From Flavobacterium sp. (GTDB taxonomy: Bacteria > Bacteroidota > Bacteroidia > Flavobacteriales > Flavobacteriaceae), in assembly GCF_965277525.1 (NCBI RefSeq), contig NZ_CBDIDC010000011.1:687068-751067 (forward strand): a stretch of 64,000 nucleotides of DNA, given 5' to 3'. Below, piece after piece: positions 1,059 to 33,808 of this stretch. Made by a program: the position numbers and the translations under genes. The notes under the pieces were generated by a model. That model had not been told where the DNA came from, ran no database searches, and was given only the letters and a program-made list of their open reading frames with translations. The stretch's first letter is position 1. Every line of letters begins with the position of its first letter.

Positions 1059-1077
1059 TAATCAATCATATAAATAA

Positions 1078-1114
1078 ATATGCGTCGATCCTGCGGAGCA
1101 GGATTAACGCATAT
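1078..1114 (-). terminator. terminator hairpin downstream of the 1119..2753 gene
   Basis: Nested perfect stems: atatgcgt/acgcatat (1078-1085 / 1107-1114) and atcctgc/gcaggat (1088-1094 / 1098-1104). It lies immediately after the minus-strand stop codon, with a T-rich run on the minus strand. Confidence 0.55.
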
Positions 1115-1118
1115 CTAA

Positions 1119-2753
1119 CTATTTAAGGTTTATCAAATTTTTTAATTTGGAAATTATTGATGCTGTTATCGGCACTCCTTCATAATCAATATACTTTTGC
1201 TGAGTATTCTGTCTATTGAAATAATCCATAAGTTTAGCCATTTCTACGTTTGAGTTATTAATGCCAGAAATGATTTTCAAAATATCTTCAACGTCAAACG
1301 ATAATAGTGGTAATATTTCATACAAGCTTACAATTTCATCCAGCGCATATTTTGGCAATTCCACCGCTACAAGTTCTGGTATCATTTCAACCAAATCCGC
1401 ATCCGTTTCCAATGTCAATGCATCAACCTTAACATTGGTCTTTACACCATGCTCTAATATAATGCGGTTCATGGTCTCAACTACCAAAGCTTCATCCTTG
1501 TCTTCACAAAGCAAAGCATCATATACGTAAAGTACAGAAACGCCTTTAGCGTTCAAATCTCTGATTACATTGCTCATGACACTCACTTCAACGCCAAACA
1601 TCTTTTGAGAGGTAATCTTATGACCGTGTTCGTTTTTATCTCTGTAAATCCTTACCAGCATATCAGTTTCGCATCTTGAATAGTATTCAAAAAGCGGAGA
1701 TTTTCTCATGTCATCCCATTTCATATTGAAAAAACTTAAGTGCTCAACCTTAACTTTTTTGAGCTCAATGTTTGCTTGTTCCGCTACTAATCCGTGTGTG
1801 AGGTAAGTGAGTGAACCATTATACAGCTTGATGGCAATATTGGGATGCAGTGCGCTGTAATCGCATTCTGTAAGCTTTTTACCGTCAATGGTAATCTGCT
1901 CTCGTATCCAAGCTGGCATCAAGGTAAAGCTATCCACGACACGACCACCGCTGTGCATGTCGCCAGCACTTGGAATCATAAAGCCACGAGAAGTCAGGAA
2001 CTCAAAGAGCCTGATATTGTCCTCAACAAAGCTCATGTTATCAGCATCTATCCAGTAATCATTTAGATGCTTGTTTCTCATTGTCAGGATTTTGCCCTTT
2101 TTGGTACAGCGACCCTCCTTGACCAATTGTTTGCCAATAGCCAGCAGTTCTGAGCTGGTTGGCAAATCAATCTTTGGATACATTGCAATGAGGTTCGAGC
2201 AGATTGGATTCTGAAAAGCCTCATGTAACTGCTTATAATACATCTTATTGCGAGTACGGATAATTCCTGTATCCTTGATGAAGTACTCGACCAGACCCGC
2301 TTTGAGATAAGTCTGGGTCAATCTAAACTTTTTGGACTGCACGCCAGCTTGATAGCTGTTATCAACTTCAACAAATGCGCCTTTTATTGTTCCAGCAGTA
2401 AGCACATCAATTATTTTAGTATAGATAAAGGTATTGTCAGTATTTCGGCTTTGCTCATGCAGTAAAACTGAATTAAGCGGTTTCCATTTGGAATCTGTAT
2501 AGTAGGTGCTTGCCAGATTAGAAAGGAACACCAGACACTTTTCCACTGCTGTATCAATATTAGGGTCAACAGCTTTAAGCATGGCTTTAGAAACGTATTT
2601 TCGCAGGTTGTACTGGGCTTTCTTTGGTATTAGGATAGAATTTACGTTGGGGAAACGCAGTGCTGATTCTGACAGCTTGTAATCGTTTTGGAGCAATTCT
2701 AAGTCTCCAGTATCGCCAGTAAAGGCAATGTAATCTTCATTTTTGAGGTTCAT
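1119..2753 (-). CDS. 544-aa hypothetical protein with right-hand polymerase palm-like motifs (family A/B DNA-polymerase-like); function unproven
   Basis: Long uninterrupted ORF. Ordered motifs are SGGRVVD (aa 268-274), CDYSALHPNI (297-306), KVEHLSFFN (336-344) and LYVYDALL (408-415). These resemble GGxV / DxxSLYPSI (or DYSQIELR) / KxxxNSxYG / DTDS (or VHDE). Confidence 0.4.
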   Translation of the reverse strand: MNLKNEDYIAFTGDTGDLELLQNDYKLSESALRFPNVNSILIPKKAQYNLRKYVSKAMLKAVDPNIDTAVEKCLVFLSNLASTYYTDSKWKPLNSVLLHEQSRNTDNTFIYTKIIDVLTAGTIKGAFVEVDNSYQAGVQSKKFRLTQTYLKAGLVEYFIKDTGIIRTRNKMYYKQLHEAFQNPICSNLIAMYPKIDLPTSSELLAIGKQLVKEGRCTKKGKILTMRNKHLNDYWIDADNMSFVEDNIRLFEFLTSRGFMIPSAGDMHSGGRVVDSFTLMPAWIREQITIDGKKLTECDYSALHPNIAIKLYNGSLTYLTHGLVAEQANIELKKVKVEHLSFFNMKWDDMRKSPLFEYYSRCETDMLVRIYRDKNEHGHKITSQKMFGVEVSVMSNVIRDLNAKGVSVLYVYDALLCEDKDEALVVETMNRIILEHGVKTNVKVDALTLETDADLVEMIPELVAVELPKYALDEIVSLYEILPLLSFDVEDILKIISGINNSNVEMAKLMDYFNRQNTQQKYIDYEGVPITASIISKLKNLINLK

Positions 2754-2776
2754 TGTGATATTCTCTTATTCTCTTT

Positions 2777-2851
2777 CCATCACTTGGATGGATTATTGTC
2801 TCTTAGATTGGCTTGGTAAGAGAAGCTGGGGCATGACTCCCAGCAACCAAG
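2777..2851 (-). promoter_or_regulatory. structured 5' leader of the polymerase-like gene (two stem-loops)
   Basis: ccatc/gatgg (2777-2781 / 2787-2791). A nested hairpin has cttggt/accaag (2812-2817 / 2846-2851) enclosing gctggg/cccagc (2825-2830 / 2839-2844). Both lie between the ATG (2753) and an AT-rich promoter-like stretch. Confidence 0.35.
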
Positions 2852-3045
2852 GTTTTAATGAGTTGTACTCTCAATTATTGCTTTTCATAAATATACTTCA
2901 AATCAAAAATTAGTCAAGAGTTTTGGATACCTAATTTTATAAAATAGTTGATATTAATTTGGTGTTCCACATTTACAATAGCGCAAACTGCGCATACTAC
3001 TATATAGCACAATATCCTTGTATCCCTTATTATTACTGGTATTAT

Positions 3046-3148: not shown

Positions 3149-3442
3149 TTAAGAAAGTAATTTACTAATACATTACTATAGTACTATACTTGTATACGTA
3201 GTCCTTTATGTTCCTAAAACACTGTTATAAACCTCCCAAATTGCAACACACGAGCACGTAAGCGTTAACAACGCTTTGAAAGGGAATAATCTGCCTCAAC
3301 AGACCACCCCATGGTCGCGGAGCCCTTCCCACCCCTGTAAACACTAAGTTTTAGAGCCTAGTTACCGCCGAGTAAACATTCCAAAAGTGTACTTCTAGCC
3401 ACCCGTAGCTCTGATATGTCCGTAAACTGCGCTGGCAAAAAT

Positions 3443-3537: not shown

Positions 3538-3684
3538 ATGAGAATAATAATAAGCTTATCCCAATTAAAACAAGTACTTAAGACCCAAAAAGTCAGATAC
3601 CCGCTATCATTCAAAGCTGGCAATTTCACGGGAAAGGAACTTGAAGAGTTTTCACGATTGATACAATCCAAGGAACGAGGCTAA
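3538..3684 (+). CDS. 48-aa small ORF (MRIIISLSQLKQVLKTQKVRYPLSFKAGNFTGKELEEFSRLIQSKERG), not in the ORF track; possible small DNA-binding or excisionase-like protein
   Basis: ATG at 3538 and TAA at 3682-3684. The stop is embedded in a strong terminator hairpin. The gene sits directly upstream of the recombinase genes on the same strand. Function is a guess. Confidence 0.3.
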   Translation: MRIIISLSQLKQVLKTQKVRYPLSFKAGNFTGKELEEFSRLIQSKERG

Positions 3685-3698
3685 AACCTCGTTTTTTT
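3674..3698 (+). terminator. rho-independent terminator
   Basis: aacgagg (3674-3680) pairs with cctcgtt (3687-3693) and is followed by a T7 run. Confidence 0.6.
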
Positions 3699-3887
3699 GT
3701 GCTCCTCAAATTCAAAAGTCTGTGAGCCCAGGAAAACCAGGATTTTTCTTGTTTAATCCAAAATAGACCTGGACATTTGTTTCACTTTCTACTAAACCTG
3801 AAAGTAACTCTGTAAACCCAATAAAATCAATGGTTTACATCAACTAGAAAAACAACCCGTTTCAGATACATATATTAAGGTATAAAA

Positions 3888-4484
3888 GTGAAACTTAAAT
3901 CAAGCAAAATGGCATTAAAAGGACAAAAGACAACGAGTGATTTTTTAGAGTGGGACAAGATGCAGACTATCGTTTTGAAACTGGAGCGTGATAATGATTT
4001 GAAATTTGCGCTACTTATTGCAACGGGTTCTTACATTGGTCTTAGAATTTCAGACCTGCTTCAACTTAGATGGAATCAGGTTTTGAATCAGGATTATTTC
4101 ACGATTATCGAGAAGAAAACCAAGAAGACCCGCAAAATAACCATCAACCCAGAATTACAGATTATCCTGAACCGTTTGTTTGTTCAGCTCCAAGCCAATG
4201 AAAATGACTTGATGTTTGTGAACCGATTTGGCGATAAGCCGTTCAGTATCCAATATGTGAACAGCAAACTCAAAGACATTTTTGCTAAATACAAGGTAAG
4301 AGGTCAGTACTCCAGCCACTTTATGCGCAAAACACTTGGACGCAGAGTTTGGGAAGTGAACAAGTACAGTGACCAAGCATTATTGTTATTATCTCAACTA
4401 TTTAACCATTCTAGTGTTTCTACAACAAAAATTTACTTGGGTATTAGAGAGCAGGAAATCAGTAACTTATATCTTAGCGTGTAA
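3888..4484 (+). CDS. minimal tyrosine recombinase (catalytic domain only, 198 aa)
   Basis: The full catalytic set is visible: GLRISDL (Arg I), HFMRKT (HxxR), FNHSS (His) and TTKIYLG (Tyr). Only ~45 aa precede the catalytic domain. GTG start. Confidence 0.7.
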   Translation: MKLKSSKMALKGQKTTSDFLEWDKMQTIVLKLERDNDLKFALLIATGSYIGLRISDLLQLRWNQVLNQDYFTIIEKKTKKTRKITINPELQIILNRLFVQLQANENDLMFVNRFGDKPFSIQYVNSKLKDIFAKYKVRGQYSSHFMRKTLGRRVWEVNKYSDQALLLLSQLFNHSSVSTTKIYLGIREQEISNLYLSV

Positions 4485-5419: not shown

Positions 5420-5983
5420 ATGCAAAACTTAGAATCGCTGTTCAAGTCTTTTGAAACTGGTATCAGGAGCGTAAAAGCGACCAAGCCGAAAGACTATCTC
5501 AATAAGATAGGTCTGGATTATGCGGAACTGAGAATAGGCTTTAATTCAGGACAGTTTCATCACAATAAAAGCCAAGGAGTCAAAGATGATTTTGAAGCTT
5601 TGGGAGTGCTTAAAAAGAGCGATGCGGGTGTAAGAAAGGAAGACCTGACAGCTTATACCGTTTTTGGAAGATACGGACTGATTTTTCCATTGTTGAGTAA
5701 GAAAAACGAGATTGTAAACTATTTCGCTTTACGGTTTGATTTGGATGCCCCTAAGGAAGAATACCTCAACAGCGAAGGCATTTATCCAGCTTATCCAAAT
5801 CCTCTGACTAAAAGGCTCTATATCGTGCCGACAGTTATTGACTGTGCAAGCCTGATGCAGTCCAAAGCACTGGAGAATAGGGATGCCGTGATTGCACTGC
5901 ACGACGGAGCGTTACTGCCTCAGCATCTGGAAGCTATTAAAACCCTGCACGAATTGGAAGAAATAATAATCATTAAACGTTAA
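5420..5983 (+). CDS. Toprim-like (degenerate) domain protein, possible primase-associated subunit
   Basis: The C-terminal LYIVPTVIDCASL ... AVIALHDGALLPQHLEAI resembles the Toprim E...DxD strand pattern, with the acidic residues partly replaced. A 4-nt gap separates it from the downstream P-loop gene. Confidence 0.3.
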   Translation: MQNLESLFKSFETGIRSVKATKPKDYLNKIGLDYAELRIGFNSGQFHHNKSQGVKDDFEALGVLKKSDAGVRKEDLTAYTVFGRYGLIFPLLSKKNEIVNYFALRFDLDAPKEEYLNSEGIYPAYPNPLTKRLYIVPTVIDCASLMQSKALENRDAVIALHDGALLPQHLEAIKTLHELEEIIIIKR

Positions 5984-5987
5984 GCAC

Positions 5988-7667
5988 ATGCAAAATATAA
6001 GAACACAAATACAAAATATAAGACCAGAACTGCCCGTAAGCATGATTCAGCTCCCTGAGGGTCACAGCATGAATGATATGTGGATAAACTACGGAACCGA
6101 TGGAATTCTGGAGCTTTTACAGAATCCAGAAGCAGAAAAAGCAGTCCAGTCACTTGAAATTCATAACGATTACAAAATCAGCTATAAAGGAAAAACAGGA
6201 ACATTTTATGCCATTGGAAGTCTGCCGATGGATTTGGGGAACCTTAGAATTTCACTACAGATTGTTGAAAAGGAGAGCCAGAAGAAACATCGAGTGAAAA
6301 TCGACCTGTTTGATTTTACCAGTGTTGAGAACCAATGCAGGGAACTCAGCGAGAAACAAGGTTTTGACGGTAATTTGCTTGAAGCTGATTTGAAGCAATT
6401 CACAGACCTGTTGGAAGACTACAGAGAAATAATCTTCAACGCTGAAATGAACCCCGTAACCGACCAATTTTCAGAAAAGGAACTTACGCCCCAAGCATAT
6501 GAAAAAGCGATAGAATTCCTCTCTAAGCCACGTGTTTTAGAACATGTAGATAAACTGCTGGGACAAAGCGGAATTGTTGGAGAAGAAGACAACAGGCTTT
6601 TATTGTTTGTACTGGCGTCCAGCTACAAAATGCCATATCTGATGCATGGACTCGTACAGGGAAGTTCAGGAGAAGGCAAGTCACACCTCATCAACGCTAT
6701 AGCAGACTGCATGCCACAGGAAGATGTAATGAACATGACCAGAATTACCAGCAAATCGCTTTATCATTACAGAGATAAAGAGCTGATGAACAAACTTATC
6801 ATTGTTCAGGATTTTGACGGATTGGATGAAGAAGCGCAATTTGCATTCAGAGAAATGCAGACAGCTAAGTTTCTGACCAGTTCCACGGTGGTTAAGGATA
6901 TGCAAGGCAATACCAGAGGAAAGATGAAAACGGTACAGTCACATTTTGCCAGTCTTATCGCTACTACAAGAGCAGAGGTCTATTATGACAATATGAGCCG
7001 TTCGGTAATCTTGGGAGTAGATGAGAGTCTGGAGCAGACACTTCGCATCATCAAGGCGCAGAATCTTAAAAACACTGGTCTCAGTAGTACCGAGAGCGAA
7101 CAGCAGGCAAAACAGCTACTTAGAAATTGTATGAGAGTTTTAAAGAGTTATGAAGTGGTTAATCCCTTTGCCGATAAGCTTATGTTACCGCTGGAGGCTA
7201 AAATGCTCCGAAGATTAAACAGCCAGTTTCAAAATTTTGTATCCCAGATAGCCATTTTAAATCAGTATCAACGAAAAAAAGATGATAAAGGAAGACTCAT
7301 CGCTACTGAAGAAGATGTAAGAAAAGCCGTTGAGATATTCTTTAGTTCCATCATTATCAAAGTAGATGAACTCGATAAAAGTACAAGACAGTTTTTTGAA
7401 AATCTCAAAGGATTTGTCAGAAGCCAGCCAAACGGAACAACATACCGATTCACAACCCGTGAGATACGGCAAGAGCTCAATATCAGCAAAACATCGGCTT
7501 TCAAATACATGCAGACCCTGCAGGAATTGGAATATATACAAGCCGTAGAAGGTTCGCCAAACAAAGGTTTTAAGTATGTAATCAGCTACTGGGACAATAT
7601 GGAAAAGCTGAAAGCCAAAATAAAGACAAACATGGCAATGCAGTTAGACCAGTTGAAAATCAGTTAA
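5988..7667 (+). CDS. P-loop NTPase, putative replicative helicase or primase-helicase C-terminal (SF3/D5-like) protein
   Basis: Walker A GSSGEGKS, Walker B LIIVQDFDGLDE, and a C-terminal winged-helix-like tail. This context is typical of plasmid and phage replication modules. Confidence 0.55.
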   Translation: MQNIRTQIQNIRPELPVSMIQLPEGHSMNDMWINYGTDGILELLQNPEAEKAVQSLEIHNDYKISYKGKTGTFYAIGSLPMDLGNLRISLQIVEKESQKKHRVKIDLFDFTSVENQCRELSEKQGFDGNLLEADLKQFTDLLEDYREIIFNAEMNPVTDQFSEKELTPQAYEKAIEFLSKPRVLEHVDKLLGQSGIVGEEDNRLLLFVLASSYKMPYLMHGLVQGSSGEGKSHLINAIADCMPQEDVMNMTRITSKSLYHYRDKELMNKLIIVQDFDGLDEEAQFAFREMQTAKFLTSSTVVKDMQGNTRGKMKTVQSHFASLIATTRAEVYYDNMSRSVILGVDESLEQTLRIIKAQNLKNTGLSSTESEQQAKQLLRNCMRVLKSYEVVNPFADKLMLPLEAKMLRRLNSQFQNFVSQIAILNQYQRKKDDKGRLIATEEDVRKAVEIFFSSIIIKVDELDKSTRQFFENLKGFVRSQPNGTTYRFTTREIRQELNISKTSAFKYMQTLQELEYIQAVEGSPNKGFKYVISYWDNMEKLKAKIKTNMAMQLDQLKIS

Positions 7668-7777: not shown

Positions 7778-8695
7778 ATGAAAAAAACAATACAGACCCC
7801 TGCATTTCAAAACCTTTTAAATGAGTTTGACAGCTATGTAAAAGTGAAGAATTATAAACAGGGAAAAGGCACAATGTACCAGAATGCCGTTTCGGAATTC
7901 CTTATCTGGCTGGAAGCATCTGGAATTACCGCTATCAAAAGCGTAACAGGTAAAGAATCAGTAAGTTATTTTGAATATCTGATAAAAAGACCCAAACACC
8001 GAGGAAACGGAACACTGGCAGGAAAGACCATAAAATTTCATCTGTTTGCTTTAGGGCTCTTTGTTTTGAATCTGCTGGAGAACAGGCATATTGAAAACGC
8101 ATATTACATTCCAAGCTATTCAGGAGAAAATGGAAAAGCCCGAAATGCCCTGAGCGTTGATGAAATCAGGAATATATATAAGCATTGTGTAAGTGATTTA
8201 CAGCGGGCTTTGTTATCAGTTGCTTACGGATGCGGGCTTCGAAGGTCGGAAATTACAGCTTTGAATGTAAGGGATATACAGCTGTCAAAAGGTATTTTAA
8301 TTGTTAGGAACGGAAAAGGAAGCAAAAGACGTGAGGTTCCTATGAGTGATATGGTCGTTGAATATCTCAGAAAATACATAACTGAAGAACGTTACCAGAA
8401 AGTAATAAGCAAAGATTTAATACAGGATGCACTTTTTATCCACGATAACGGAAAACAGATGAATGGCGAATACCTCAACAATATGCTAAAGAAAATAATT
8501 GAACAAACCAATGATTATCAGCTTATACAGAAAGAGATAACGCTTCACTGCCTCAGACACAGCATTGCCAATCATTTAATGGAAAAGAACGCAGGAATAG
8601 ATTTTATACGTGGATTTTTAGGTCATTCGGGAATCAATACAACCTATATCTATGCGGTTCGGAACAAAAAACGAAAACCAGTAACAACCTTTTAA
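7778..8695 (+). CDS. tyrosine recombinase (XerC/D-like integrase)
   Basis: N-terminal SAM-like domain, then GLRRSEITALNVRDI (Arg I), HCLRHS (HxxR) and LGHSGINTTYIYA (His...Tyr). Confidence 0.85.
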   Translation: MKKTIQTPAFQNLLNEFDSYVKVKNYKQGKGTMYQNAVSEFLIWLEASGITAIKSVTGKESVSYFEYLIKRPKHRGNGTLAGKTIKFHLFALGLFVLNLLENRHIENAYYIPSYSGENGKARNALSVDEIRNIYKHCVSDLQRALLSVAYGCGLRRSEITALNVRDIQLSKGILIVRNGKGSKRREVPMSDMVVEYLRKYITEERYQKVISKDLIQDALFIHDNGKQMNGEYLNNMLKKIIEQTNDYQLIQKEITLHCLRHSIANHLMEKNAGIDFIRGFLGHSGINTTYIYAVRNKKRKPVTTF

Positions 8696-8706: not shown

Positions 8707-9573
8707 ATGACCAAATTAACAATTGAAAATTTCCTGCTCCAACATTACAGCATACAGACCGTAAAGAGTTATTTATTTGCTATAAACCATTTTTTAAAAC
8801 GGAACCCCAAAGCTAAACGTTACAAATACAGGAACATCGTGCAGTATATGGAAGAAATCAGCCAAGAACAACCCAATGGAAAATATCGAGTTGTCATTTT
8901 ATCAGCAATCAAAAAATATTATGATTATCTGGTTATGAGCGGATACAGAACAGACCATCCGTGCAGGAAGCTCAATATCAAGGTTAACAGCAATCAGGCT
9001 GTTCAGGTTCAGGATTTGTTTAGCTCAGAAGAGCTTGAGCTTCTCTTGACACGTGAGAATCGATACGAGAATTTGGATACCAGAAACAACGTTCTTTTGA
9101 ATCTGCTGATTTACCAAGGTTTAACCAGTGACGAAATCATAAAATTGAATGTTCAGGACATTGATTTGGACGCAGGAACAATTTATATCAAAGCATCCAG
9201 TAATTTGAGCAGACGCAAATTATCATTGTTAGCTAAACAAATATTGCTATTTTCCAAATACATCACCGAAGTCAGACCCAAAATGCTCAGAGGAGCAACC
9301 GACAAACTGATTATCGGCAAACTGGGCAAGCCTATTACAGTTAACAGTATCCATGCAATGATTGAGCCGTTAAAGCCTTTGTTTCCAGATAAGAACCTCA
9401 ACCCCAGAACTATCCGAATGAGTGTTATTTGCAACTGGCTCAATGAGAAAAAGCTGGCTTTGGAACACGTTCAGGAACTCGCAGGACATAAATGGCCTGG
9501 AACCACAGAGAAGTATATCAAAGCGGACAGCCTGCAACAGCGTGAACTGATAAATAAATACTTTCCGATTTGA
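8707..9573 (+). CDS. tyrosine-recombinase paralog with Arg I replaced (GLTSDE)
   Basis: Same fold pattern as 7778..8695, but GLTSDEIIKLNVQDI has Thr where Arg I is expected. RTIRMS replaces HxLRHS. AGHKWPGTTEKYI keeps His and Tyr. It starts 11 nt after the upstream gene. Confidence 0.65.
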   Translation: MTKLTIENFLLQHYSIQTVKSYLFAINHFLKRNPKAKRYKYRNIVQYMEEISQEQPNGKYRVVILSAIKKYYDYLVMSGYRTDHPCRKLNIKVNSNQAVQVQDLFSSEELELLLTRENRYENLDTRNNVLLNLLIYQGLTSDEIIKLNVQDIDLDAGTIYIKASSNLSRRKLSLLAKQILLFSKYITEVRPKMLRGATDKLIIGKLGKPITVNSIHAMIEPLKPLFPDKNLNPRTIRMSVICNWLNEKKLALEHVQELAGHKWPGTTEKYIKADSLQQRELINKYFPI

Positions 9574-9987: not shown

Positions 9988-10041
9988 TTTTGTAGTTTTT
10001 AGTTGATTTAAAATTCAGGCAAATATATTAAAAATTCTATT

Positions 10042-10067
10042 TTATAGTGTACTAAATTATAGAGTAC
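10042..10067. promoter_or_regulatory. direct repeat TTATAG(T/A)GTAC x2 in the divergent promoter region; candidate XRE operator
   Basis: ttatagtgtac at 10042-10052 and ttatagagtac at 10057-10067, about 35 nt upstream of the XRE start codon. Confidence 0.3.
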
Positions 10068-10099
10068 CACAAAAAAGACAAAATATTGAGATTTGGAGT

Positions 10100-10363
10100 A
10101 TGAAAGATTCTACCCAAACAAACAATATAGAAGAACTTAATGCAATTGCATTGAGACTTAAAGAACTGAGAAAAGCAAAAGGATATTCCAATTATGAGCA
10201 TATTGCATTTGCTTTGGAAATGAGCCGTTCAGCTTACTGGAGATTAGAAACTGGAGCTAATTTTGAATTAAAAACACTTATTAAAATTTGTAGAGTGCTG
10301 GAAATTAGCCTTGAAGAGTTTTTTAAAGGAATTGACCTGCCAAAATCAAAGATAAAAAGCTAA
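10100..10363 (+). CDS. XRE-family helix-turn-helix transcriptional regulator
   Basis: LKELRKAKGYSNYEHIAFALEMSRSAYWRLETG is a typical Cro/CI-type HTH. Confidence 0.8.
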   Translation: MKDSTQTNNIEELNAIALRLKELRKAKGYSNYEHIAFALEMSRSAYWRLETGANFELKTLIKICRVLEISLEEFFKGIDLPKSKIKS

Positions 10364-10427
10364 AAAAAATTATAAAACTGTCCTATTTGTATCCCCCGCC
10401 AATACTGGGAACTTTAAAAATTACAAT

Positions 10428-10470
10428 AAAACTCTAAGTCATAACTGTTTGATTTAGAGTTTTTTGTTTT
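10428..10470 (+). terminator. hairpin and T-run downstream of the XRE gene
   Basis: aaaactctaa (10428-10437) pairs with ttagagtttt (10454-10463) and is followed by ttgtttt. The loop is large (16 nt). Confidence 0.4.
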
Positions 10471-10535
10471 AGTATCTGTCAAAATTTACTGTCCTATTTT
10501 ATTTTAGACCCTAAAATTACCTTCGCAAAAGAAAG

Positions 10536-10775
10536 TTGAATGTTTCAACCTTCATTGAAAGAATCATTTTTCAATTTGCAAACGATAATAAAATCAACGA
10601 TATGAATAATTTTACATTTTTTTTAGGTTTTATTCTGATAATAACCTCAATGTTTATGGCATTTCCAGAAAGAGCAAGAAAAGCTACTAAATGTCTAATC
10701 CAATTAGTCGGAGCTTTGTTTATCAGTAAAGCATTTCAAGCAATAACAGCTTATTTCAACCGAAATAAACCGTAA
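10536..10775 (+). CDS. small membrane protein (more likely starts at ATG 10602)
   Basis: The track start is TTG. The internal ATG gives MNNFTFFLGFILIITSMFMAF..., with one clear TM helix. Confidence 0.3.
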   Translation: MNVSTFIERIIFQFANDNKINDMNNFTFFLGFILIITSMFMAFPERARKATKCLIQLVGALFISKAFQAITAYFNRNKP

Positions 10776-10819
10776 TGATTATTTTTTATAAATGAAAAAT
10801 ATTACATTTGAATCGCTAG

Positions 10820-11785
10820 GATATAGAGAAAAGGACGTTCTTACTACATTATAGAAACTTTGCAGAACCTTATAAGTATAAGTACAACGGGAAAGAGCTC
10901 CAAGATGAGAGTATTGGCGGGAATCAGCTGAATTGGTATGACATGGAAGCTCGAAATTATATGCCTGACATTGGTCGTTGGGGTAATATGGATAAACTGG
11001 CTGAAAGTTTCTTTGTTTTATCTCCATATAATTTTTCAAATAATAATCCAGTATATTTTTCTGACTCTAGTGGTCTTTCTCCAGATGGACCAAAAGAAGC
11101 AATTGCTTCAACTATTGTAAGAAATGGAAGAGTAATAGAACATCGAGACGATGGCGACCCAGGTATTTATTTAGCTGATTTTGGCTGGCAAGTGGGTGGA
11201 TCGACTCAGGGTTTGTCATTATTAGGTTTTGAAAAACCAGGTGAAACTTATAACGTAGGCGATAGGATTATGTTTGATTTATCTGGTTATGGTACAACAA
11301 GTCAGCCTAAAAGAGCATTAGGTGTAACTTATGCTATTGGTGGTGCTTATGATATAACTGGAGCTTGGGAAGCTTTTTTTACAGAGTTGTTTTCGGAACT
11401 AGGTGATGATTCTCCAGAAACAGCACTTGCATTTGCAGTTGTGACGAAAGGAAAGGTAAAACCAAAACTTGCCGTTAGATTATTAGAAAATTTACCTACC
11501 CAGATTCATCATTTTGCAACAAATAAACATTCAAAATATTCAAAACAAATGGCAAAGATAATAGAGCAATATAATTTAAAATTGAGTGGTTCTTGGAACA
11601 AAGGTGCGTTACCACATTTGGGACGGCACCCGAATGCATATCATGATTTTGTTCTTGAAAGCATGCAAAAAGCTAGTATGGAGGCAGGAAATGACAAAGC
11701 AAAATTCTTAAAATTGTTTGACCAATATGTCAAACAACCCGTTATTGAGAATCCAAATTTATTAAGAAAATCAGGCTGGGAATAA
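10820..11785 (+). CDS. orphan Rhs/YD-repeat C-terminal module: core-end motif plus an HNH/EndoVII (AHH/SHH-like) nuclease toxin domain; 5'-truncated
   Basis: The frame is open from 10820 with no upstream rhs body. It reads YKYKYNGKELQDE...YDMEARNYMPDIGRWGNMD...SPYNFSNNNPVYFSDSSGL (Rhs core end), then IHHFATNKH...LPHLGRHPNAYHDF. The internal ATG at 10943 is the track start. Confidence 0.7.
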   Translation, partial: DIEKRTFLLHYRNFAEPYKYKYNGKELQDESIGGNQLNWYDMEARNYMPDIGRWGNMDKLAESFFVLSPYNFSNNNPVYFSDSSGLSPDGPKEAIASTIVRNGRVIEHRDDGDPGIYLADFGWQVGGSTQGLSLLGFEKPGETYNVGDRIMFDLSGYGTTSQPKRALGVTYAIGGAYDITGAWEAFFTELFSELGDDSPETALAFAVVTKGKVKPKLAVRLLENLPTQIHHFATNKHSKYSKQMAKIIEQYNLKLSGSWNKGALPHLGRHPNAYHDFVLESMQKASMEAGNDKAKFLKLFDQYVKQPVIENPNLLRKSGWE

Positions 11786-12384
11786 TGAGTAAGTATTTTT
11801 TTTTAAGTTGGAAGAATTCAACACAAACAGCAAGTGCAATTTATGAAATCGAACATCAGATTGCACATGAGCTAATCCCTGAATTAGAAGGAAAAGAATC
11901 ACTGCCGTTTAACTTTAATTTAAAACGAATTAGAGAAACAAAAGATGATATAATCATAGATGATAATTTGGATGAATTACAAGAAATTTGGCTGGATTAC
12001 CTACCAAATAGCCTTGCTTGGCCTTTAATGTCCCAAAAATTAAAATTGGTAGTGCAAGAAAACCTTACAGAAAATGAAGGTGTTGACTGGCTTGATTGTA
12101 AAGTTAATTATGGAAATGAAGAAAGAATATATTATATTTTAAGATTCAACAAAATATTGGATGTTTTGGATATGACAGAAACAAGTTTTGTTAGAGGTAC
12201 TGACCATATAATAAGACCAGTTTTTTCATATTCAAAAGTTAGAAATCTTAATATTTTTAGCAAACCAGCATATCAATATTTATGGAGAATTACATCGGGA
12301 CTGTATGTTAGTGAGAAATTAAAAAAAGAAATACAAAAAATGAAATTGACAGGACTTGATTTTTCAAAAGTACGAGTGATTTAA
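11785..12384 (+). CDS. putative cognate immunity protein
   Basis: Its start overlaps the toxin stop (TAATG). The N-terminus and size are similar to the protein that follows the second AHH/SHH-like toxin (25851..26543). Confidence 0.55.
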   Translation: MSKYFFLSWKNSTQTASAIYEIEHQIAHELIPELEGKESLPFNFNLKRIRETKDDIIIDDNLDELQEIWLDYLPNSLAWPLMSQKLKLVVQENLTENEGVDWLDCKVNYGNEERIYYILRFNKILDVLDMTETSFVRGTDHIIRPVFSYSKVRNLNIFSKPAYQYLWRITSGLYVSEKLKKEIQKMKLTGLDFSKVRVI

Positions 12385-13523: not shown

Positions 13524-14264
13524 TTACTCTATTGGTTGTTTTTCTATTTTCTTTTTTCTCATTGATTCTCCCTTTAATTCTATCCGAAGGGCATTGTGAA
13601 CGATTCTGTCTAAAATTGCATCTGCAATGGTTTGTTCTGCAATAACTTCATGCCAGGATTCAACTGGGAGCTGCGAAGCAATAATAGTTGATTTTTTTCC
13701 ATGCCTGTCCTCAATTATCTCCATAAGATCCTGCCTTTTAAAGTTATCTAATGATTGCAGCCCAAAATCATCTAGTATAATGAGGTCCTGCTTTTCTATT
13801 TTATTAATTTCTTTTATGTAAGAGCCGTCAGCTTTAGCCATTTTAAGTTTAGAGAAAAGTTTATTGATATTAAAATACATTACTTTGTAGCCCATCATAC
13901 AGGCTTTATAACCAATTGCTGTAGCTATAAAGCTTTTACCAACACCCGTACTTCCACAGACCAGGATGTTTTGTTTGTTTTTTATAAAATCACAAAACTC
14001 AAGTCTGTTTATTAAGTTTTTATCTACTCCTCTGGAACTGTCAAAATCGATTTCTTCGATAAAAGCTTTATACCTGAACTTGGCAGTATTGATCAATCTT
14101 TCTACTTTTCGATTTTCTCTGTCATCATATTCAGAGTTAATTAAATAAGCAATAAGTTCATCATTTGTGTAATCGATACTACTTGCCTCTAAAGTAGTAT
14201 TAAAGGCTCTGGACATTCCGTAGAGCCTTAACTGTTTCATTTTTTCTAATGTTTGATCATTCAT
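13524..14264 (-). CDS. istB: IS21-family helper ATPase IstB
   Basis: Walker A GSTGVGKS and Walker B DLIILDDFG, DnaA/DnaC-like AAA+. Located downstream of istA. Confidence 0.9.
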   Translation of the reverse strand: MNDQTLEKMKQLRLYGMSRAFNTTLEASSIDYTNDELIAYLINSEYDDRENRKVERLINTAKFRYKAFIEEIDFDSSRGVDKNLINRLEFCDFIKNKQNILVCGSTGVGKSFIATAIGYKACMMGYKVMYFNINKLFSKLKMAKADGSYIKEINKIEKQDLIILDDFGLQSLDNFKRQDLMEIIEDRHGKKSTIIASQLPVESWHEVIAEQTIADAILDRIVHNALRIELKGESMRKKKIEKQPIE

Positions 14265-14286
14265 ATAGTTATTTCATTAATGGTTG

Positions 14287-15876
14287 TTATTTGTAATATT
14301 CCTTGCCTCTAATATTATTATGTTTTGGTATTTCTTTATCTTCAATAGCAGGATCTTCATCAATGAACTCTAATCCTTTCTCCAGGATAGATTTGATGAT
14401 TGGGTAATTTATTTTTTCATAATCCATCGCTCTCTTACAAGCATTGTTTAATCTGTCATTGCCTACTTTATTGGCTAAACTTAACACGCCGGTACAGGAT
14501 TTATAAGATTGCTCGGGATGCTGTTTTTTATCTAATATTTGTATAATAAATGATTTGCAAAATTCTCCAACAGAAGCTCCCCATTGGATAAACCTCTCAG
14601 GATTCCACTCGGCCACAAACTGATGTGATGTGGGCATGTGTTCGTTATTTGTTGTATAAAGATATTTGGAGTAGTCCCTCTGATGACTGGCTATTATGCG
14701 CTGCCCATGATAAATCTCAACGGTAGTCTTACTGTAAATAATCAATACTTTCTTGCCCATATAAATAAAAGGCACGCTATAATAGTGTTTGTCTTTATTG
14801 AGATAAACATGGCTGGATTTATGAACGGTTGCTTTAGCAAAACCTTTGAGCTGATAGGGATTAACAGGTAAAAATGATAGTGCTTCTTTTTCTATCTCAT
14901 TAAACAAATCTAATCTTGAGTATTTTCTGCCTTTAAAAGACATTGTATTATGCTTTTCTAAAAGTGGTAAAATAGCATCATTAAGGGCTTCTATAGTAAA
15001 AAATTCTTCTTTGCGTAAAGGGGCAAAAATTCTGGTATAAATTATTCTTACTGCATTTTCAACCAGAGCCTTATCTTTTGGGTGATAAGCTCTTGTGGGA
15101 AGTATTGTAGTTGCGTAATGAGATGCAAAGTCTAATAAATATTCCGTTACTAAGGGCTCATATTTATCACTCTTTTTAACGGCTGTTCTTAAATTATCCG
15201 TTACAATAGCACTTGGAACACCCTGATAGTAGTCTAGCATTTTTACCAAACTTCCCATAAAGTCTTCTTTGTTTTGAGTCCTGGTAGCTTCTACAAAAGT
15301 AAGTCCGCTTGCTCCCAGTACACTTACAAAAACTTCTACTTCACACACTTCTCCTGTAGACTGGTCAATAACGGATAATTTCTTTCCTGTATAGTCTACA
15401 AAAACTTTATCCCCTGCCTTATGATGCATATGCATAGAGGGTTTGAGTTTGCCTCGCCAATTTTGATAATGGTAGCAAAACTGGGAATAACTGTAGCCAT
15501 TAGGATGATTTTCCCTATACTCTTCCCAGAGCAATTGTCGGGTAACACCAACTCGCTTTAATTCTTTTTCTATCGTGGGAAATAAGGATTCTAAAACTAT
15601 GTTTTTTTCTGGAACAGCTTTTATCTGTCCATCAAAGAGTTCTTCCAGATCTTCATTACTAAGACCTGATAACTCTTGATAGGTAAAAGAATTTTGATGA
15701 AATGATTCAATATATTTCTTTACAGTATTGCGTGATAAGCCTAATTGTCTGCTTATTTGGAGCTTACTTACTCCTTGAGTATATAAACGTAATAATTGCA
15801 AAATGTTTCTCATATCCAGTCGTTTATTTGCCATATCTTTTGTTTTAAAAACAAGTAAGATATTCTTTACAAACAC
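14287..15876 (-). CDS. istA: IS21-family transposase IstA (likely true start MANKRLDMRN at 15834)
   Basis: N-terminal HTH (SRQLGLSRNTVKKY), a DDE core (VFVDYTG..., VTDNLRTAV) and a typical IstA C-terminal domain. Confidence 0.9.
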   Translation of the reverse strand: MFVKNILLVFKTKDMANKRLDMRNILQLLRLYTQGVSKLQISRQLGLSRNTVKKYIESFHQNSFTYQELSGLSNEDLEELFDGQIKAVPEKNIVLESLFPTIEKELKRVGVTRQLLWEEYRENHPNGYSYSQFCYHYQNWRGKLKPSMHMHHKAGDKVFVDYTGKKLSVIDQSTGEVCEVEVFVSVLGASGLTFVEATRTQNKEDFMGSLVKMLDYYQGVPSAIVTDNLRTAVKKSDKYEPLVTEYLLDFASHYATTILPTRAYHPKDKALVENAVRIIYTRIFAPLRKEEFFTIEALNDAILPLLEKHNTMSFKGRKYSRLDLFNEIEKEALSFLPVNPYQLKGFAKATVHKSSHVYLNKDKHYYSVPFIYMGKKVLIIYSKTTVEIYHGQRIIASHQRDYSKYLYTTNNEHMPTSHQFVAEWNPERFIQWGASVGEFCKSFIIQILDKKQHPEQSYKSCTGVLSLANKVGNDRLNNACKRAMDYEKINYPIIKSILEKGLEFIDEDPAIEDKEIPKHNNIRGKEYYK

Positions 15877-24832: not shown

Positions 24833-25845
24833 GACCTGCTAAGAACCCAATAACAAACGTTCTTGAAATTGTCGAAGAGAATAATTATTATCCTTTTGGT
24901 TTAAAACATGAAAGATATAATACGGATAATAAGCAGGTAGGATATAATTATAAGTACAACGGAAAAGAACTGCAAGACGAGAGTATCGGGGGCTTTCAGC
25001 TGAATTGGTATGACATGGAAGCTCGAAATTATATGCCGGATATTGGGCGTTGGGGAAGTATAGATGAACTTGCAGAAAGTTTTTTTAATTTTTCGCCCTA
25101 TGATTTCTCAAATAATAATCCTGTATTTTTCTCAGATCCGAGTGGTTTAGCTCCAGAAAATCCTAATACTAACTATTTGGCATCAACTGTTGTAAATAGT
25201 AGAGGAAAAGTACTAGATTATAAAAATGATGGAGATACAAATATTTATTTAGCTGATGATAATTGGAAAGTGGGAAGTTCTAGAACAGGATTGCCTATAA
25301 TAGGACATGAGAAGGCAGGAGCTACATATTATCCTGGACAACAAATTAATATTAATTTTTTAACTGGAGTTGGGGAAGTTTCTAGGATAGCTAATGGCGC
25401 AGCAACTCCAATAGGTGGGGCTTTCGATATTTTAGGATTTTGGGATATGCTATCTCAAACAACTGAAGGTGATTCAGATTTACTGGCATTACTTTTCATA
25501 ATGAGAGGTAAGGGAGTTAATTCAACAAATATAGGAATCAATAACTCACATCATTTAGTGCCTAAAGCTGTTTTTAAAGCACTTAAAAGAGATTTAAAAG
25601 CTTTAATGAAATTAGGCAGTAAGAAAAACTTAATTAATTTAACGACACCTTTTCATGGTAATCACCCACAATATAGTGCATATGTTAAAAATGTGCTTAC
25701 GGAACTTAAAAATGCTGGTTCACTAAGTAAGGCATCAATCGAAGTTTTACAAAATGATTTAAGATCAATAATAAGTAATGCAGCAAAAGAATATGATAAA
25801 ACAGGAAAAAATTTGAATGAATATTTTAGACAGTTAAATAAATAG
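24823..25845 (+). CDS. orphan Rhs C-terminal module with an HNH/EndoVII (SHH/AHH-type) nuclease toxin domain; 5'-truncated and mosaic
   Basis: AKNPITNVLEIVEENNYYPFGLKHERY...YDMEARNYMPDIGRWGSID...SPYDFSNNNPVFFSDPSGL, then NNSHHLVPK...PFHGNHPQYSAYV. There is no rhs body upstream. Confidence 0.7.
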   Translation, partial: KKRRPAKNPITNVLEIVEENNYYPFGLKHERYNTDNKQVGYNYKYNGKELQDESIGGFQLNWYDMEARNYMPDIGRWGSIDELAESFFNFSPYDFSNNNPVFFSDPSGLAPENPNTNYLASTVVNSRGKVLDYKNDGDTNIYLADDNWKVGSSRTGLPIIGHEKAGATYYPGQQININFLTGVGEVSRIANGAATPIGGAFDILGFWDMLSQTTEGDSDLLALLFIMRGKGVNSTNIGINNSHHLVPKAVFKALKRDLKALMKLGSKKNLINLTTPFHGNHPQYSAYVKNVLTELKNAGSLSKASIEVLQNDLRSIISNAAKEYDKTGKNLNEYFRQLNK

Positions 25846-25850
25846 AGAAT

Positions 25851-26543
25851 ATGAAATATTATCAAATAAGCCACTCTTCTGAACCTAAGGTTATTGGAGT
25901 TAAGAATGGGGTTTACCAATTCGAAATTGATTATAATAACCTAACTAAGGATATTGAATCTCAATCTTTTTTAGATTTTTTTGATTACAGTAATAAGGAT
26001 TTTTGGAGTGATCAAGAACGTATAAAAAACTTTAAAATTCCTGTAATTAAAGGAGAAATGTTAAAAAAAGCAACAGTGACAGACATTATGGGGTATGCGC
26101 CTATTATTAGCTATTTAAATGAAGCATTTAGTTATAAATATGTTAGTATTCTTAAAGAATATAATATAGATAATTATGGTACTTTTAAAATAGAAATACA
26201 AGATGTTTTAGAAAGATACTATTTGTTATTTAATAAAACAATTTGTCTTGATGAAATTGATTATAAAGAATCAACATTAGTGACAGGTCATGCAATGATG
26301 GATAATCTAAAATATTACAAGGTCGAAAATGAATTTGAATATATTGAATTCAAACAAAAAAATCCATTGGGTAAATTTGATAAAATTTCTATTTCAAAAG
26401 AATTTTTTGGAAAAGATATCATTTGTATTCAACCTTTAGCCAACCCATTTTATTCGGAAAAATTAATTAATGGATTAATAAATGAAGGTATAACTGGCTT
26501 GGAAATCAAATATGAAAATTCTACGAAACTTAGTTTTGTTTAA
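25851..26543 (+). CDS. putative cognate immunity protein
   Basis: It starts 5 nt after the toxin stop. The N-terminus MKYYQISH resembles MSKYFFLSW of 11785..12384. Confidence 0.55.
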   Translation: MKYYQISHSSEPKVIGVKNGVYQFEIDYNNLTKDIESQSFLDFFDYSNKDFWSDQERIKNFKIPVIKGEMLKKATVTDIMGYAPIISYLNEAFSYKYVSILKEYNIDNYGTFKIEIQDVLERYYLLFNKTICLDEIDYKESTLVTGHAMMDNLKYYKVENEFEYIEFKQKNPLGKFDKISISKEFFGKDIICIQPLANPFYSEKLINGLINEGITGLEIKYENSTKLSFV

Positions 26544-32156: not shown

Positions 32157-33428
32157 TTATTGAGAGAGTCCTCTTCTCTTTTTCTTGCTTTTTTTCTTTT
32201 TCAATTGATTTTGTATATAATCTGAAGAATATTCAGCTCGCATAAGCACATCCAATAACTTAACTAAATGAGGAATAGTAAGTGTATCTTTTTGATATTG
32301 AAGATCATCAATCAATAATTCTTTAGATGGGAGGTTTTCGTAAATCTGATTGCTTTTTCCTTCAATAGCAACCTTTAATCCGCATCGCTCTTCAATAGCT
32401 TTTGCACTGTATTCTTTTCCCAAGCTACTGCCATTAAAAACATTTTTGGTGATAAGGTCTATATAAGTAATACCATAAAGTAAGCCTTCACTACTTCTTC
32501 TAAAAACGGTTTGAATGCCTTCTCTTTCCAATAGTTTTGCAAGATGACTTATAGGCATTGCTCGCTCATTTAAGAGTGCCATATTAATAATGTTTTTTAT
32601 CCGTAATTTGTCAGACATATTTCTTGCTTCATTTTCCTTAAATTTTTCTCCCAAGAATTTCAACGTTGGTTTAAAATAAAAATCACTTGCTTTTATTGGA
32701 ACACCAATTGGGTTTCCTTTGTCATCCAGTATTCGGTACACCAATCCATTTGCTAAAAAGATTTTTGAATTCTCACTGCCACGATCAGCCAAAACATTAT
32801 ATTGTTTTAGCACTGCATTAAGTTCGGGAAGGCTGGAATATTTATACTCATTAATTATCTTATTTAAAACATTGGTTAGGGCTTTTTTAGATTCAATTTT
32901 TCCATAGCTAACCTTGCCCATCGAAATGGGCTGTAAATTAAACTGCTCTTTTATTTTTCGTCCTTCCGCTTTTACCAGTCCAAAAATCTCTTCTATTTCC
33001 TTTCTCGCTGGTTCTGATTTTCGTATGCCTAGATGGTGCATGTCAATCCGCTTGCCGTATCTTTCAATGTTTACAGAAACTACATGCACGTGCGGGTGTC
33101 CCGCATCGTGATGCTGGTAAACCAAATAAGGCTGTTTTGCAAAACCGATTTTGTCCATGTAGGTATTTACAATAGCCATCAATTTTTCTTTTGAATGATT
33201 TTCTGACGGATCAAAATTGAGCGAAATATGTACGCTGTTCCGTTTGGTATTTTCGTTTAATTCAAGGCGTTTTGTAAAGCGGTTGATCTTTGCAAAATCA
33301 TCTAATTTATCTACATCAGCAGTATAATTTTCCGCACCGATACATTCTGCTACACCCTGTTTAACCTTATTCTCATTATAGTTAAAGATACTCCGGATCG
33401 AATGGCTCGTTTTTATGATTGTAACCAT
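32157..33428 (-). CDS. MOB relaxase (relaxase/mobilisation nuclease domain; Bacteroidota MobB-type)
   Basis: YLVYQHHDAGHPHVHVVSVNI is the HxDxxxPHxH histidine triad. The N-terminal Tyr region is present. The start overlaps the upstream accessory gene by 16 nt. Confidence 0.85.
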   Translation of the reverse strand: MVTIIKTSHSIRSIFNYNENKVKQGVAECIGAENYTADVDKLDDFAKINRFTKRLELNENTKRNSVHISLNFDPSENHSKEKLMAIVNTYMDKIGFAKQPYLVYQHHDAGHPHVHVVSVNIERYGKRIDMHHLGIRKSEPARKEIEEIFGLVKAEGRKIKEQFNLQPISMGKVSYGKIESKKALTNVLNKIINEYKYSSLPELNAVLKQYNVLADRGSENSKIFLANGLVYRILDDKGNPIGVPIKASDFYFKPTLKFLGEKFKENEARNMSDKLRIKNIINMALLNERAMPISHLAKLLEREGIQTVFRRSSEGLLYGITYIDLITKNVFNGSSLGKEYSAKAIEERCGLKVAIEGKSNQIYENLPSKELLIDDLQYQKDTLTIPHLVKLLDVLMRAEYSSDYIQNQLKKKKSKKKRRGLSQ

Positions 33429-33808
33429 TTATCCGAGATTTTATAAATATGATTTTGAATGTCATTTATTTTATTGGAAAGGATTATTCTTTCCAATTCG
33501 TAACGTGTAATCCATTCTCTGAATTCCGGAAATTGTTTTAAGGTATGCATCTTTTTCACAACCTGATTTACATTGTTTCCCACAGCACTCAGCTCGTTAC
33601 GGAGTAGTACGATTTCTTCGATAGAATCGTCTATTGACTGATTTCTGTAATGTGTTGTAATGGGCTTGTTAAATAAATGCTTGCGAATATAATCGCTCAG
33701 TTTACGGCACGTACTGTTTTTGTATCGTTGCTCAATTTTCGAATACTCTTCTGGTGTCACGCGCACTGTAATTCTGCGTGATCTGTTTGAATTTTCTCTT
33801 TCCATCAT
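33413..33808 (-). CDS. relaxosome accessory protein (MobC family, RHH-like)
   Basis: RITVRVTPEEYSKIE (ribbon-helix-helix-type strand) and LSAVGNNVNQVVKKMH (the MobC GxNxNQ motif). Confidence 0.75.
   Translation of the reverse strand: MMERENSNRSRRITVRVTPEEYSKIEQRYKNSTCRKLSDYIRKHLFNKPITTHYRNQSIDDSIEEIVLLRNELSAVGNNVNQVVKKMHTLKQFPEFREWITRYELERIILSNKINDIQNHIYKISDKWLQS

Follow-up and report, generated by a model that had tools for sequence, protein, structure and literature searches.

Introduction

Minimal PolA-like polymerases of transposons and viruses, the TV-Pols, were described by Iyer, Abhiman and Aravind in 2008 (PMC2579912). These enzymes have a two-helix thumb, an arginine on a beta-hairpin, two aspartates and fingers bearing an Asp and an RxxxK motif, but lack any nuclease, and some of them begin with an all-helical domain (PMC2579912). 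Next to their genes are gamma-delta resolvases, lambda-type integrases or transposases, and these regions are hot spots for restriction-modification operons; members were listed from Cytophaga, Polaribacter, Psychroflexus and a Flavobacteriales bacterium, and the proteins were predicted to be primase-polymerases of replicative elements (PMC2579912). The only TV-Pol to have been tested, CcPol of SCCmec, works as a DNA primase when the OB-fold protein MP binds it, and CcPol-MP makes DNA primers (PMC7581432). CcPol-MP is an experimentally shown PolA-type primase (PMC7581432, PMC10061031), a 2023 survey found PolA-SSB primases in Bacillota only (PMC10061031), and primer-independent DNA synthesis is the only experimentally supported function for such enzymes (PMC7581432, PMC10061031). 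Here we describe POL, a 544-amino-acid (aa) protein encoded in a 64,000-nucleotide (nt) stretch of Flavobacterium sp. DNA (the window; assembly GCF_965277525.1, contig NZ_CBDIDC010000011.1, positions 687,068 to 751,067, forward strand). POL has the fold of a family A DNA polymerase, its gene is preceded by a structured leader RNA, and its relatives are found on phages and genomic islands of Bacteroidota.

Results

POL has the fold of family A DNA polymerases

The open reading frame (ORF) of POL is present as it had been described in an initial annotation of the window made from sequence, and its parts are as follows.

1119-2753, minus strand: POL coding sequence, 544 aa, ATG start, stop codon TAG at 1119-1121 (ORF list)
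2394-2642, minus strand: N-terminal all-helical domain, aa ~38-120, candidate TV-PolN-like domain (six helices with predicted local distance difference test (pLDDT) values >90; family-wide conservation)
1953-2393, minus strand: small beta unit, thumb-like long helix pair (162-180, 183-194) and N-terminal part of the palm, aa ~121-267 (secondary structure of the model; 370-440 columns aligned by Foldseek with the polymerase domains of Pol I enzymes)
1902-1952, minus strand: SGGRVVDS...WIR segment, aa 268-284 (column counts; hhalign places WIR on (R)IRQAF)
1833-1880, minus strand: motif A, aa 292-307, a beta strand ending at D298 and then H303-P304-N305 (conservation, model, hhalign)
1539-1832, minus strand: shortened fingers, aa 308-405, with invariant H320, K335, N343, Y358 and E389 and near-invariant K373 (conservation, model, hhalign)
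1503-1538, minus strand: motif C, aa 406-417, a beta hairpin with YVYD412A (conservation, model)
1122-1427, minus strand: variable C-terminal helical extension, aa 443-544 (low pLDDT; many homolog profile matches stop near 442)

An AlphaFold model computed from a 125-sequence alignment reached a pLDDT of 87.2 and a predicted template modelling (TM) score of 0.78, with residues 30-445 above 90; a first model, from 58 close homologs, had a pLDDT of 49.6 and was not used. When the model was compared with the Protein Data Bank (PDB) by Foldseek, every one of the best 50 matches listed was a family A DNA polymerase, and 45 matches had E<=1e-3. Among those listed are Aquifex Pol1, Bst large fragment, KlenTaq, Klenow, apicoplast Pol, Pol theta and T7 DNA polymerase (DNAP), matched with a probability of ~1.0, TM scores of 0.30-0.36 and 10-13% identity. 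The best viral matches, themselves predicted structures, are ~400-aa proteins that fit better than the PDB family A enzymes (E 1e-13, TM 0.64-0.68) and include a 'putative DNA polymerase I [uncultured marine phage]'. A 'DNA replication protein' of the Zamilon virophage (V6BPG7) is a weak match (E 1.5e-3).

The model begins with the six-helix N-domain (38-120), the small beta unit, two long antiparallel helices (162-194) and the Arg-bearing segment, and continues with the strand ending at D298, a helical insertion (302-402) and a hairpin that turns at D412, before closing with a helix and a strand. As modelled, D298 ends beta strand 292-299 and D412 sits in the turn of hairpin 408-410/413-417, followed by a helix and a strand, which is palm topology. 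The predicted order is that of thumb, palm, fingers and palm in Pol I, with no room for an exonuclease. The absence of convincing ExoI-III motifs from the N-terminal part, reported previously from the sequence, agrees with this model, in which residues 38-255 form the helical N-domain and the thumb-like helix pair.

The initial annotation had suggested a structural model and search as a check, and the palm and polymerase-domain match that they returned is to family A. It had likened POL to families A and B alike; the family A part of that comparison holds in both fold and register (TGRLSS / IRxAF / DYSQIE / DIH / K758 / HDE), and the family B resemblance proved superficial. Of the kinds of enzyme it considered, a divergent polymerase is upheld, being family A-like, and nothing supports protein priming. 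POL does not fall outside the known kinds of polymerase, as the exonuclease-less, PolA-like TV-Pols and CcPol have already been described (PMC2579912, PMC7581432).

Conserved residues and the Pol I register

Conservation was counted across 125 cluster representatives at 30-62% identity. Ten residues are invariant in all 125: D298, H303, P304, H320, K335, N343, Y358, E389, Y409 and D412. R271 and R284 are each present in 124/125, and A413 in 122/125. The motifs are not due to chance, since these residues are invariant across 125 diverse representatives, and both aspartates singled out earlier as worth checking (Asp298 and Asp412) are among them. The divergent viral copies of POL hold the same key residues (D298, D412, R271, R284, H320, K335). 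The motif positions first assigned by eye were right for SGGRVVD (268-274), ECDYSALHPNIA (296-307) and VLYVYDALLC (407-416), as was the Asp298-Asp412 spacing of 114 aa; KVEHLSFFN lies at 335-343, not 336-344.

The family consensus is D-[YF]-x-[CA]-L-H-P-N for motif A and Y-D-A for motif C. An outlier from Psychroflexus montanilacus (locus L058, 9914-11257) retains F-D-E in motif C, which suggests that the glutamate was lost within the POL family. No invariant Asp lies between 299 and 411 in the 125-sequence alignment.

Register with Pol I was obtained by hhalign, in three runs of the trimmed larger family profile against a nine-sequence PolA profile. The similarity is weak (E 0.017-0.054), with a consistent register. 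All three runs place R284 on R682, and the two longer alignments equate P280 with the Pro of NLQNIP, D298 with D705, H303 with E710, H320 with H734 and K335 with K758. By eye, GGR271 would correspond to TGR668LSS and YD412A to HD882E (E. coli Pol I numbering, in which R668 belongs to TGRLSS and R682 to IRQAF). The functional roles of these Pol I residues are well established. Read in this register, POL retains both metal ligands of Pol I and three of its four ligands for the triphosphate. R754 and E883 of Pol I are lost, and at the steric-gate position, E710 in Pol I, POL has an invariant His (H303). The O-helix motif RxxxKxxxFxxxYG is present only through its invariant lysine, K335; position 331 is L, R or V.

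Single-sequence comparisons were silent. The family profile gave no hhalign signal with E. coli Pol I, T7 DNAP or T7 RNA polymerase (RNAP), and no hit was returned when a hidden Markov model was run over Pol I, T7 and the initial 50 kb of Microcystis phage Ma-LMM01, a phage reported to encode a TV-Pol.

A large family without a domain model

POL has no Pfam (E<=10), NCBIfam or PADLOC match, and PDB sequence searches were empty for the single protein and for both family profiles tried. The one library entry that it matches, over residues 264-310, is the phage family PHROG 4756, which has no assigned function, and this match is common to 76 of 82 POL family members. The same 82 members gave no Pfam family with more than four matches, and DNA_pol_A was not among the families listed. 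The Pfam and PDB searches that the initial annotation had recommended thus returned no match to an unrelated family.

A word-indexed search found 678 POL homologs, the closest being Flavobacterium 'hypothetical proteins'. Searched exhaustively against 1.84 billion cluster representatives, the profile matched 477 clusters at E<=1e-3, of which 248 also passed E<=1e-30, counted at 50% identity. One homolog, 76% identical, is labelled in UniRef as 'DNA-directed DNA polymerase family A palm domain-containing protein'. The core common to the family spans residues ~38-442; the last ~100 residues are variable, and in some homologs Pfam detects homing-endonuclease domains after the core (aa ~490-700 of long homologs).

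These C-terminal fusions are HNH_3+NUMOD4 in homologs P0137 and P0150 and GIY-YIG+NUMOD1 in P0140 and P0247. Homing endonucleases are also encoded directly downstream of POL by c16 genes at six loci (L022, L023, L025, L032, L041, L043). Homing endonucleases beside or fused to a gene are a usual pattern around conserved phage replication genes.

POL is found on islands and phages of Bacteroidota

A scan of one genome per GTDB species located 54 POL loci, nearly all in Bacteroidota. Represented are Flavobacterium, Chitinophagaceae, Lacinutrix, Nonlabens, Salinimicrobium and Psychroflexus, together with two metagenome-assembled genomes labelled as other phyla. Twenty IMG/VR contigs carry POL, and three of them have genes for phage structure or packaging: portal and head protease (L064), large terminase (L066) and tail fibre (L071). 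The window protein and a distant viral member had no tblastn match in 50,697 phage records, nor had the window protein any in 72,556 plasmid records. A search started from the Psychroflexus outlier reached only 28 unnamed relatives, and neither named TV-Pols nor other phyla.

Clustered serine or tyrosine recombinases lie within 5 kb of POL in at least 31 of 58 loci, a lower bound because many contigs are short, and type I restriction-modification genes are nearby in 10/58. Four settings recur. In eight loci POL ends a co-directional module of c2 (114 aa), an AAA_24 ATPase, DUF3871 and c6 (82 aa); a tyrosine integrase is often upstream of this module, and six loci have a GIY-YIG homing endonuclease after it. 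Neither c2 nor c6 belongs to a detectable family, and c2 had no PDB match. In the second setting a small serine recombinase is divergently upstream of POL, and a large serine recombinase is often found at the island edge beside prs-rplY-pth. The third, which includes the window, has a short tyrosine recombinase divergently upstream, and in the fourth a C5 methylase or type I restriction-modification genes adjoin POL.

One Flavobacterium locus (L003) has two POL copies, at 689-1999 and 10001-11599, which are 89% identical over 1278 nt. They have the same orientation and flank the integrase and P-loop module.

A structured leader RNA precedes POL

POL in the window is a monocistronic gene, with a promoter-like site of its own before it and a terminator after it.

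2890-2917, minus strand: promoter-like TTGACT-16-TATATT, the region's best in a consensus scan (10/12) for the sigma-70 consensus, from which Bacteroidota promoters differ
2754-2876, minus strand: 5' leader RNA motif, ~125 nt, with hairpins P0 (2859-2873), nested P1 (2812-2851) and P2 (2776-2792)
2818-2824, minus strand: TTCTCTT in the P1 internal loop, complementary to the AAGAGAA (2761-2767) that closely precedes the ATG, a candidate anti-ribosome-binding site
1070-1122, minus strand: intrinsic-terminator-like hairpin after the stop codon, then UUUAUUUAU (free energy -27.5 kcal/mol, z -6.4, 0/200 shuffles as stable)

The leader RNA is the least expected element of this analysis. The ~125 nt between the promoter-like site and the ATG are more conserved than the POL protein itself, and the structured leader that had been read from the sequence consists of three hairpins with covariation. 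A covariance model (R1) made from seven loci found 26 instances, all immediately 5' of POL genes (besides the window, at L001, L003, L006-L021, L030, L036, L051, L052 and L062-L064), including three viral contigs and loci whose POL is only 40-50% identical to that of the window. In the helices, 98.6% of cells are paired and both sides change in 20 of 22 pairs; the observed values were reached by 0/500 shuffles, and the covariation score was 0.439 against <=0.056 with slid partners. The alignment was fitted to the model, which favours structure; the margin is large. Rfam had no match, and the leader is a candidate for a new cis-regulatory RNA.

Pairing of TTCTCTT with AAGAGAA is possible in 91% of cells, and it has modest support from a TC/GA swap seen to co-vary in 5 cells; an alignment-free check was also made. 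A third copy, AAGAGA, is present at 2799-2804, between the two. The complementarity suggests a translational switch and is not proof of one. At the other end of the gene, the separate terminator claimed in the initial annotation is borne out as the hairpin at 1070-1122 with its U-rich tail, and its sequence is conserved in four other loci (L001, L008, L009, L011).

The window is a mosaic of mobile elements

Mobile elements of several kinds make up the window around POL.

3538-3700, plus strand: small ORF, 48 aa (MRIIISLSQLKQVLKTQKVRYPLSFKAGNFTGKELEEFSRLIQSKERG), presumed coding, conserved beside POL in 16 loci
3888-4484, plus strand: short (198-aa) tyrosine recombinase consisting of the catalytic domain alone, oriented divergently to POL (Pfam Phage_integrase, 4e-17)
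5988-7667, plus strand: P-loop protein, 559 aa, with GSSGEGKS and a C-terminal helix-turn-helix, preceded by a 187-aa protein (5420-5983)
7778-8695 and 8707-9573: two further tyrosine recombinases (window proteins)

The short tyrosine recombinase is a neighbour of POL in eight loci and is replaced elsewhere by a small serine recombinase. The 48-aa ORF, which has no Pfam or other family match, accompanies POL whichever recombinase adjoins it, and ends in a hairpin (CGAGG..CCTCG) followed by T7, a clean intrinsic terminator. The 66-nt non-coding block that separates this ORF from the short integrase (~3714-3779) recurs with 95% identity in L017 and L030, which have a different recombinase gene, of the serine type; the block may be a recombination site or operator. 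A direct repeat at 2982-2993 and 3421-3432 (GCGCAGTTT[A/G]CG, also written CG[C/T]AAACTGCGC) is part of a small palindrome and brackets a ~430-nt AT-rich stretch with large indels between loci. We considered this stretch as a candidate origin or recombination site. The repeat also raised the idea of an invertible promoter between POL and the recombinase, which was set aside: its two copies have the same orientation, and the interval differs from locus to locus.

The 187-aa protein and the P-loop protein form a pair between the recombinases that recurs in four loci (L003, L006, L008, L011). By its position only, the pair resembles a replication initiator or helicase; the 187-aa protein had no PDB or family match.

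Farther from POL, AHH-family nuclease toxin domains at 10943-12384 and 25015-26543, the first followed by an Imm11 immunity gene and the second by an unassigned ORF, look like polymorphic-toxin cassettes. An IS21-type istB (IstB_IS21) stands beside a transposase with a Mu-transposase C-terminal domain (13524-15876, minus strand), and a MobA/VirD2 relaxase is encoded with a small upstream ORF at 32157-33808 (minus strand).

Discussion

We propose that POL is an active, proofreading-free polymerase of the PolA fold, which initiates and extends the DNA of the phage or element that carries it, under the control of its leader RNA. We put the probability of this reading at roughly 0.6. In such a model D298 of motif A and D412 of motif C would bind the two metals of nucleotidyl transfer, R284, H320 and K335 would hold the triphosphate of the incoming nucleotide, and R271 would contact the primer or template end. 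POL would serve tailed phages and integrated elements as both replication initiator and polymerase, a primase-polymerase like TV-Pol and CcPol, letting an element copy itself after excision or infection. The gene would act as a self-contained expression unit of promoter-like site, ~125-nt leader and terminator, in which TTCTCTT of the leader could pair with the purine-rich stretch at the start codon and so control translation.

Several points weigh against this proposal. Homology is drawn from a predicted structure at modest TM scores, because sequence methods fail: they give no link of POL to Pol I, T7 DNAP or T7 RNAP. The Arg of the O-helix RxxxK is not conserved and the Glu of HDE is Ala in POL, and with these two residues changed the kinetics or substrate may differ. 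The P-loop protein at 5988-7667 had no PDB or family match by which it could be identified as a D5 or superfamily 3 helicase. Many loci adjoin restriction-modification genes, which also fits a role in conflict or defence. Finally, POL in the window is monocistronic and has no helicase or SSB-like operon partner, unlike CcPol, and is far more divergent.

It is tempting to speculate further that the POL family is an independent branch of the PolA fold with changed substrate rules: primer-independent, using ribonucleoside triphosphates (rNTPs) or mixed nucleotides, with synthesis of the protein switched by the leader and the protein perhaps bound to it, as at the autogenous translational operator of T4 gp43. 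Such an enzyme is conceivable because the steric-gate Glu has become His and the O-helix Arg and motif C Glu have been lost, and we regard this extended version as doubtful. If true, it would be a new kind of primase or a small RNA polymerase of phages and mobile elements.

The same residues bear on the strongest alternative, in which POL synthesises RNA: a PolA-fold enzyme that selects rNTPs, either as a primase making only RNA primers or as a single-subunit DNA-dependent RNA polymerase transcribing phage or element genes. Invariant H303 stands in place of the steric-gate E710, the position of Tyr766 is taken by Phe342 or Asn343, and the HDE glutamate is lost, as it is in the HDS motif of T7 RNAP. 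T7-like RNAPs share the fold, and TV-Pols have been proposed to resemble the common ancestor (PMC2579912). However, the best 50 PDB matches listed are all DNA polymerases and include no RNA polymerase, hhalign to T7 RNAP was not significant, and the ~400-aa core has no room for a T7-like N-terminal promoter-binding domain or specificity loop. The tested analogue, CcPol-MP, makes DNA primers (PMC7581432). We therefore consider RNA synthesis unlikely.

The surroundings of POL raise a second possibility, that it is part of an anti-phage or inter-element conflict system and that its polymerase is put to defence and not to replication, with a toxic or decoy nucleic acid as one conceivable product. 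POL is often found beside type I restriction-modification genes, C5 methylases, leucine-rich repeat proteins and toxin/immunity cassettes in variable islands, and it is tightly regulated and self-contained, with an adjacent structured RNA. We find this improbable: PADLOC had no match, no partner gene is conserved across contexts, and POL is present in tailed-phage genomes and in the replication-type AAA_24 module. Moreover, restriction-modification cargo is typical of mobile islands generally (PMC10061031, PMC2579912).

POL could instead be a polymerase relic, catalytically dead and retained because it binds DNA or RNA or has a regulatory function, such as that of a partner to the neighbouring recombinase. 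Loss of the O-helix Arg and motif C Glu would fit, as would the constant pairing with a small tyrosine or serine recombinase in many loci, and vestigial 'Pol' proteins reduced to an RNA-recognition motif exist in related element families (PMC10061031). Yet both metal aspartates and three of the four triphosphate ligands are invariant down to 30% identity, conservation that is not expected without catalysis, and thumb, palm and fingers are all retained in the model. A relic is accordingly less probable still than a defence role. We reject a family B or protein-primed polymerase and an archaeo-eukaryotic primase (AEP) as very improbable, since the best 50 PDB matches listed are all family A, the likeness to family B noted in the initial annotation (DYSALHPNIA against DxxSLYPS) is confined to DYSALHPN, the order of thumb, beta-hairpin Arg, palm, inserted helical fingers and palm is that of family A, and exonuclease motifs, terminal protein region (TPR) and terminal-protein features are absent, even though E296-x-D298, T319-H320 and D412 (ExD, TH, YD) can be read as the AEP motifs I-III (DxD, sxH, hD).

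The findings have several consequences. At least ~480 clusters at 50% identity, with no Pfam or NCBIfam model and annotated as 'hypothetical', can now be read as Pol I-fold polymerases, and POL becomes a candidate replication enzyme for islands of Flavobacterium and Chitinophagaceae and for uncultured Bacteroidota phages. A Pol I active site with an altered steric gate and O-helix is a natural experiment, relevant to polymerase engineering and to how priming may evolve from elongation. The leader, in turn, offers a conserved candidate cis-regulatory RNA that is new to Rfam.

Comparison with known polymerases

Pol I large fragments (Klenow, Bst LF, KlenTaq), apicoplast Pol and Pol theta have their fold in common with POL (Foldseek probability 1.0), and POL has equivalents of R668, R682, D705, H734, K758 and D882. 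It differs in its 10-13% identity, in having no match to DNA_pol_A (PF00476) and neither a 3'-5' nor a 5'-3' exonuclease, and in fingers that are ~60 aa shorter, with E710 changed to His, R754 lost and E883 changed to Ala. Closer in structure are the PHROG 4756 and ~400-450-aa phage proteins, such as A0A8D9FR19 ('putative DNA polymerase I') and the DNA polymerase of Rheinheimera phage Barba31A, which are the best structural matches (TM 0.64-0.68); their sequence similarity to POL, however, is limited to ~50 residues around R271-D298. The piPolB of pipolins embodies the same concept, an integrative element with its own replicative, primer-independent polymerase, recombinases and defence cargo (PMC11551731), but it is an unrelated family B enzyme with an exonuclease domain, and the parallel is one of analogy only.

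CcPol-MP and the PolA-SSB primases resemble POL as truncated PolA-type polymerases on integrative islands with serine or tyrosine recombinases and restriction-modification cargo (PMC7581432, PMC10061031). CcPol differs in being reachable by BLAST from Pol I and in keeping part of the exonuclease domain. It is also co-operonic with its OB-fold partner MP and a helicase (COG3378 or DUF927), and is known only in Bacillota, whereas the P-loop protein at 5988-7667 lies on the opposite strand to POL.

The likeness to TV-Pols is the most extensive. By model and profile searches POL is a minimal PolA-like domain without a nuclease, its only fusions being to homing endonucleases. It has a predicted thumb of two antiparallel helices (162-180/183-194, pLDDT >95, by secondary structure only), an arginine in the beta-hairpin position (R271, 124/125), two palm aspartates (125/125) and an all-helical N-terminal domain, and it occurs in Bacteroidetes and phages beside recombinases in restriction-modification and mobile-element hot spots. 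POL departs from the TV-Pols in its fingers, which keep only the Lys of RxxxK and have no conserved Asp, and in its motif A (D-[YF]-x-[CA]-L-H-P-N) and motif C (Y-D-A). Further, its profile does not reach the Pol I and T7 polymerases, as the 2008 TV-Pol profiles did, and no link to a D5-like helicase was seen. Compared by published description only, POL probably belongs to the TV-Pol group. The available text of two recent family A polymerase censuses (PMC10201439; PMC12926913, by text search) has no mention of such a Bacteroidota group. The POL family is a large new group within a known kind, the minimal PolA-like enzymes of mobile elements, and would extend the PolA-type primases from Bacillota to another phylum.

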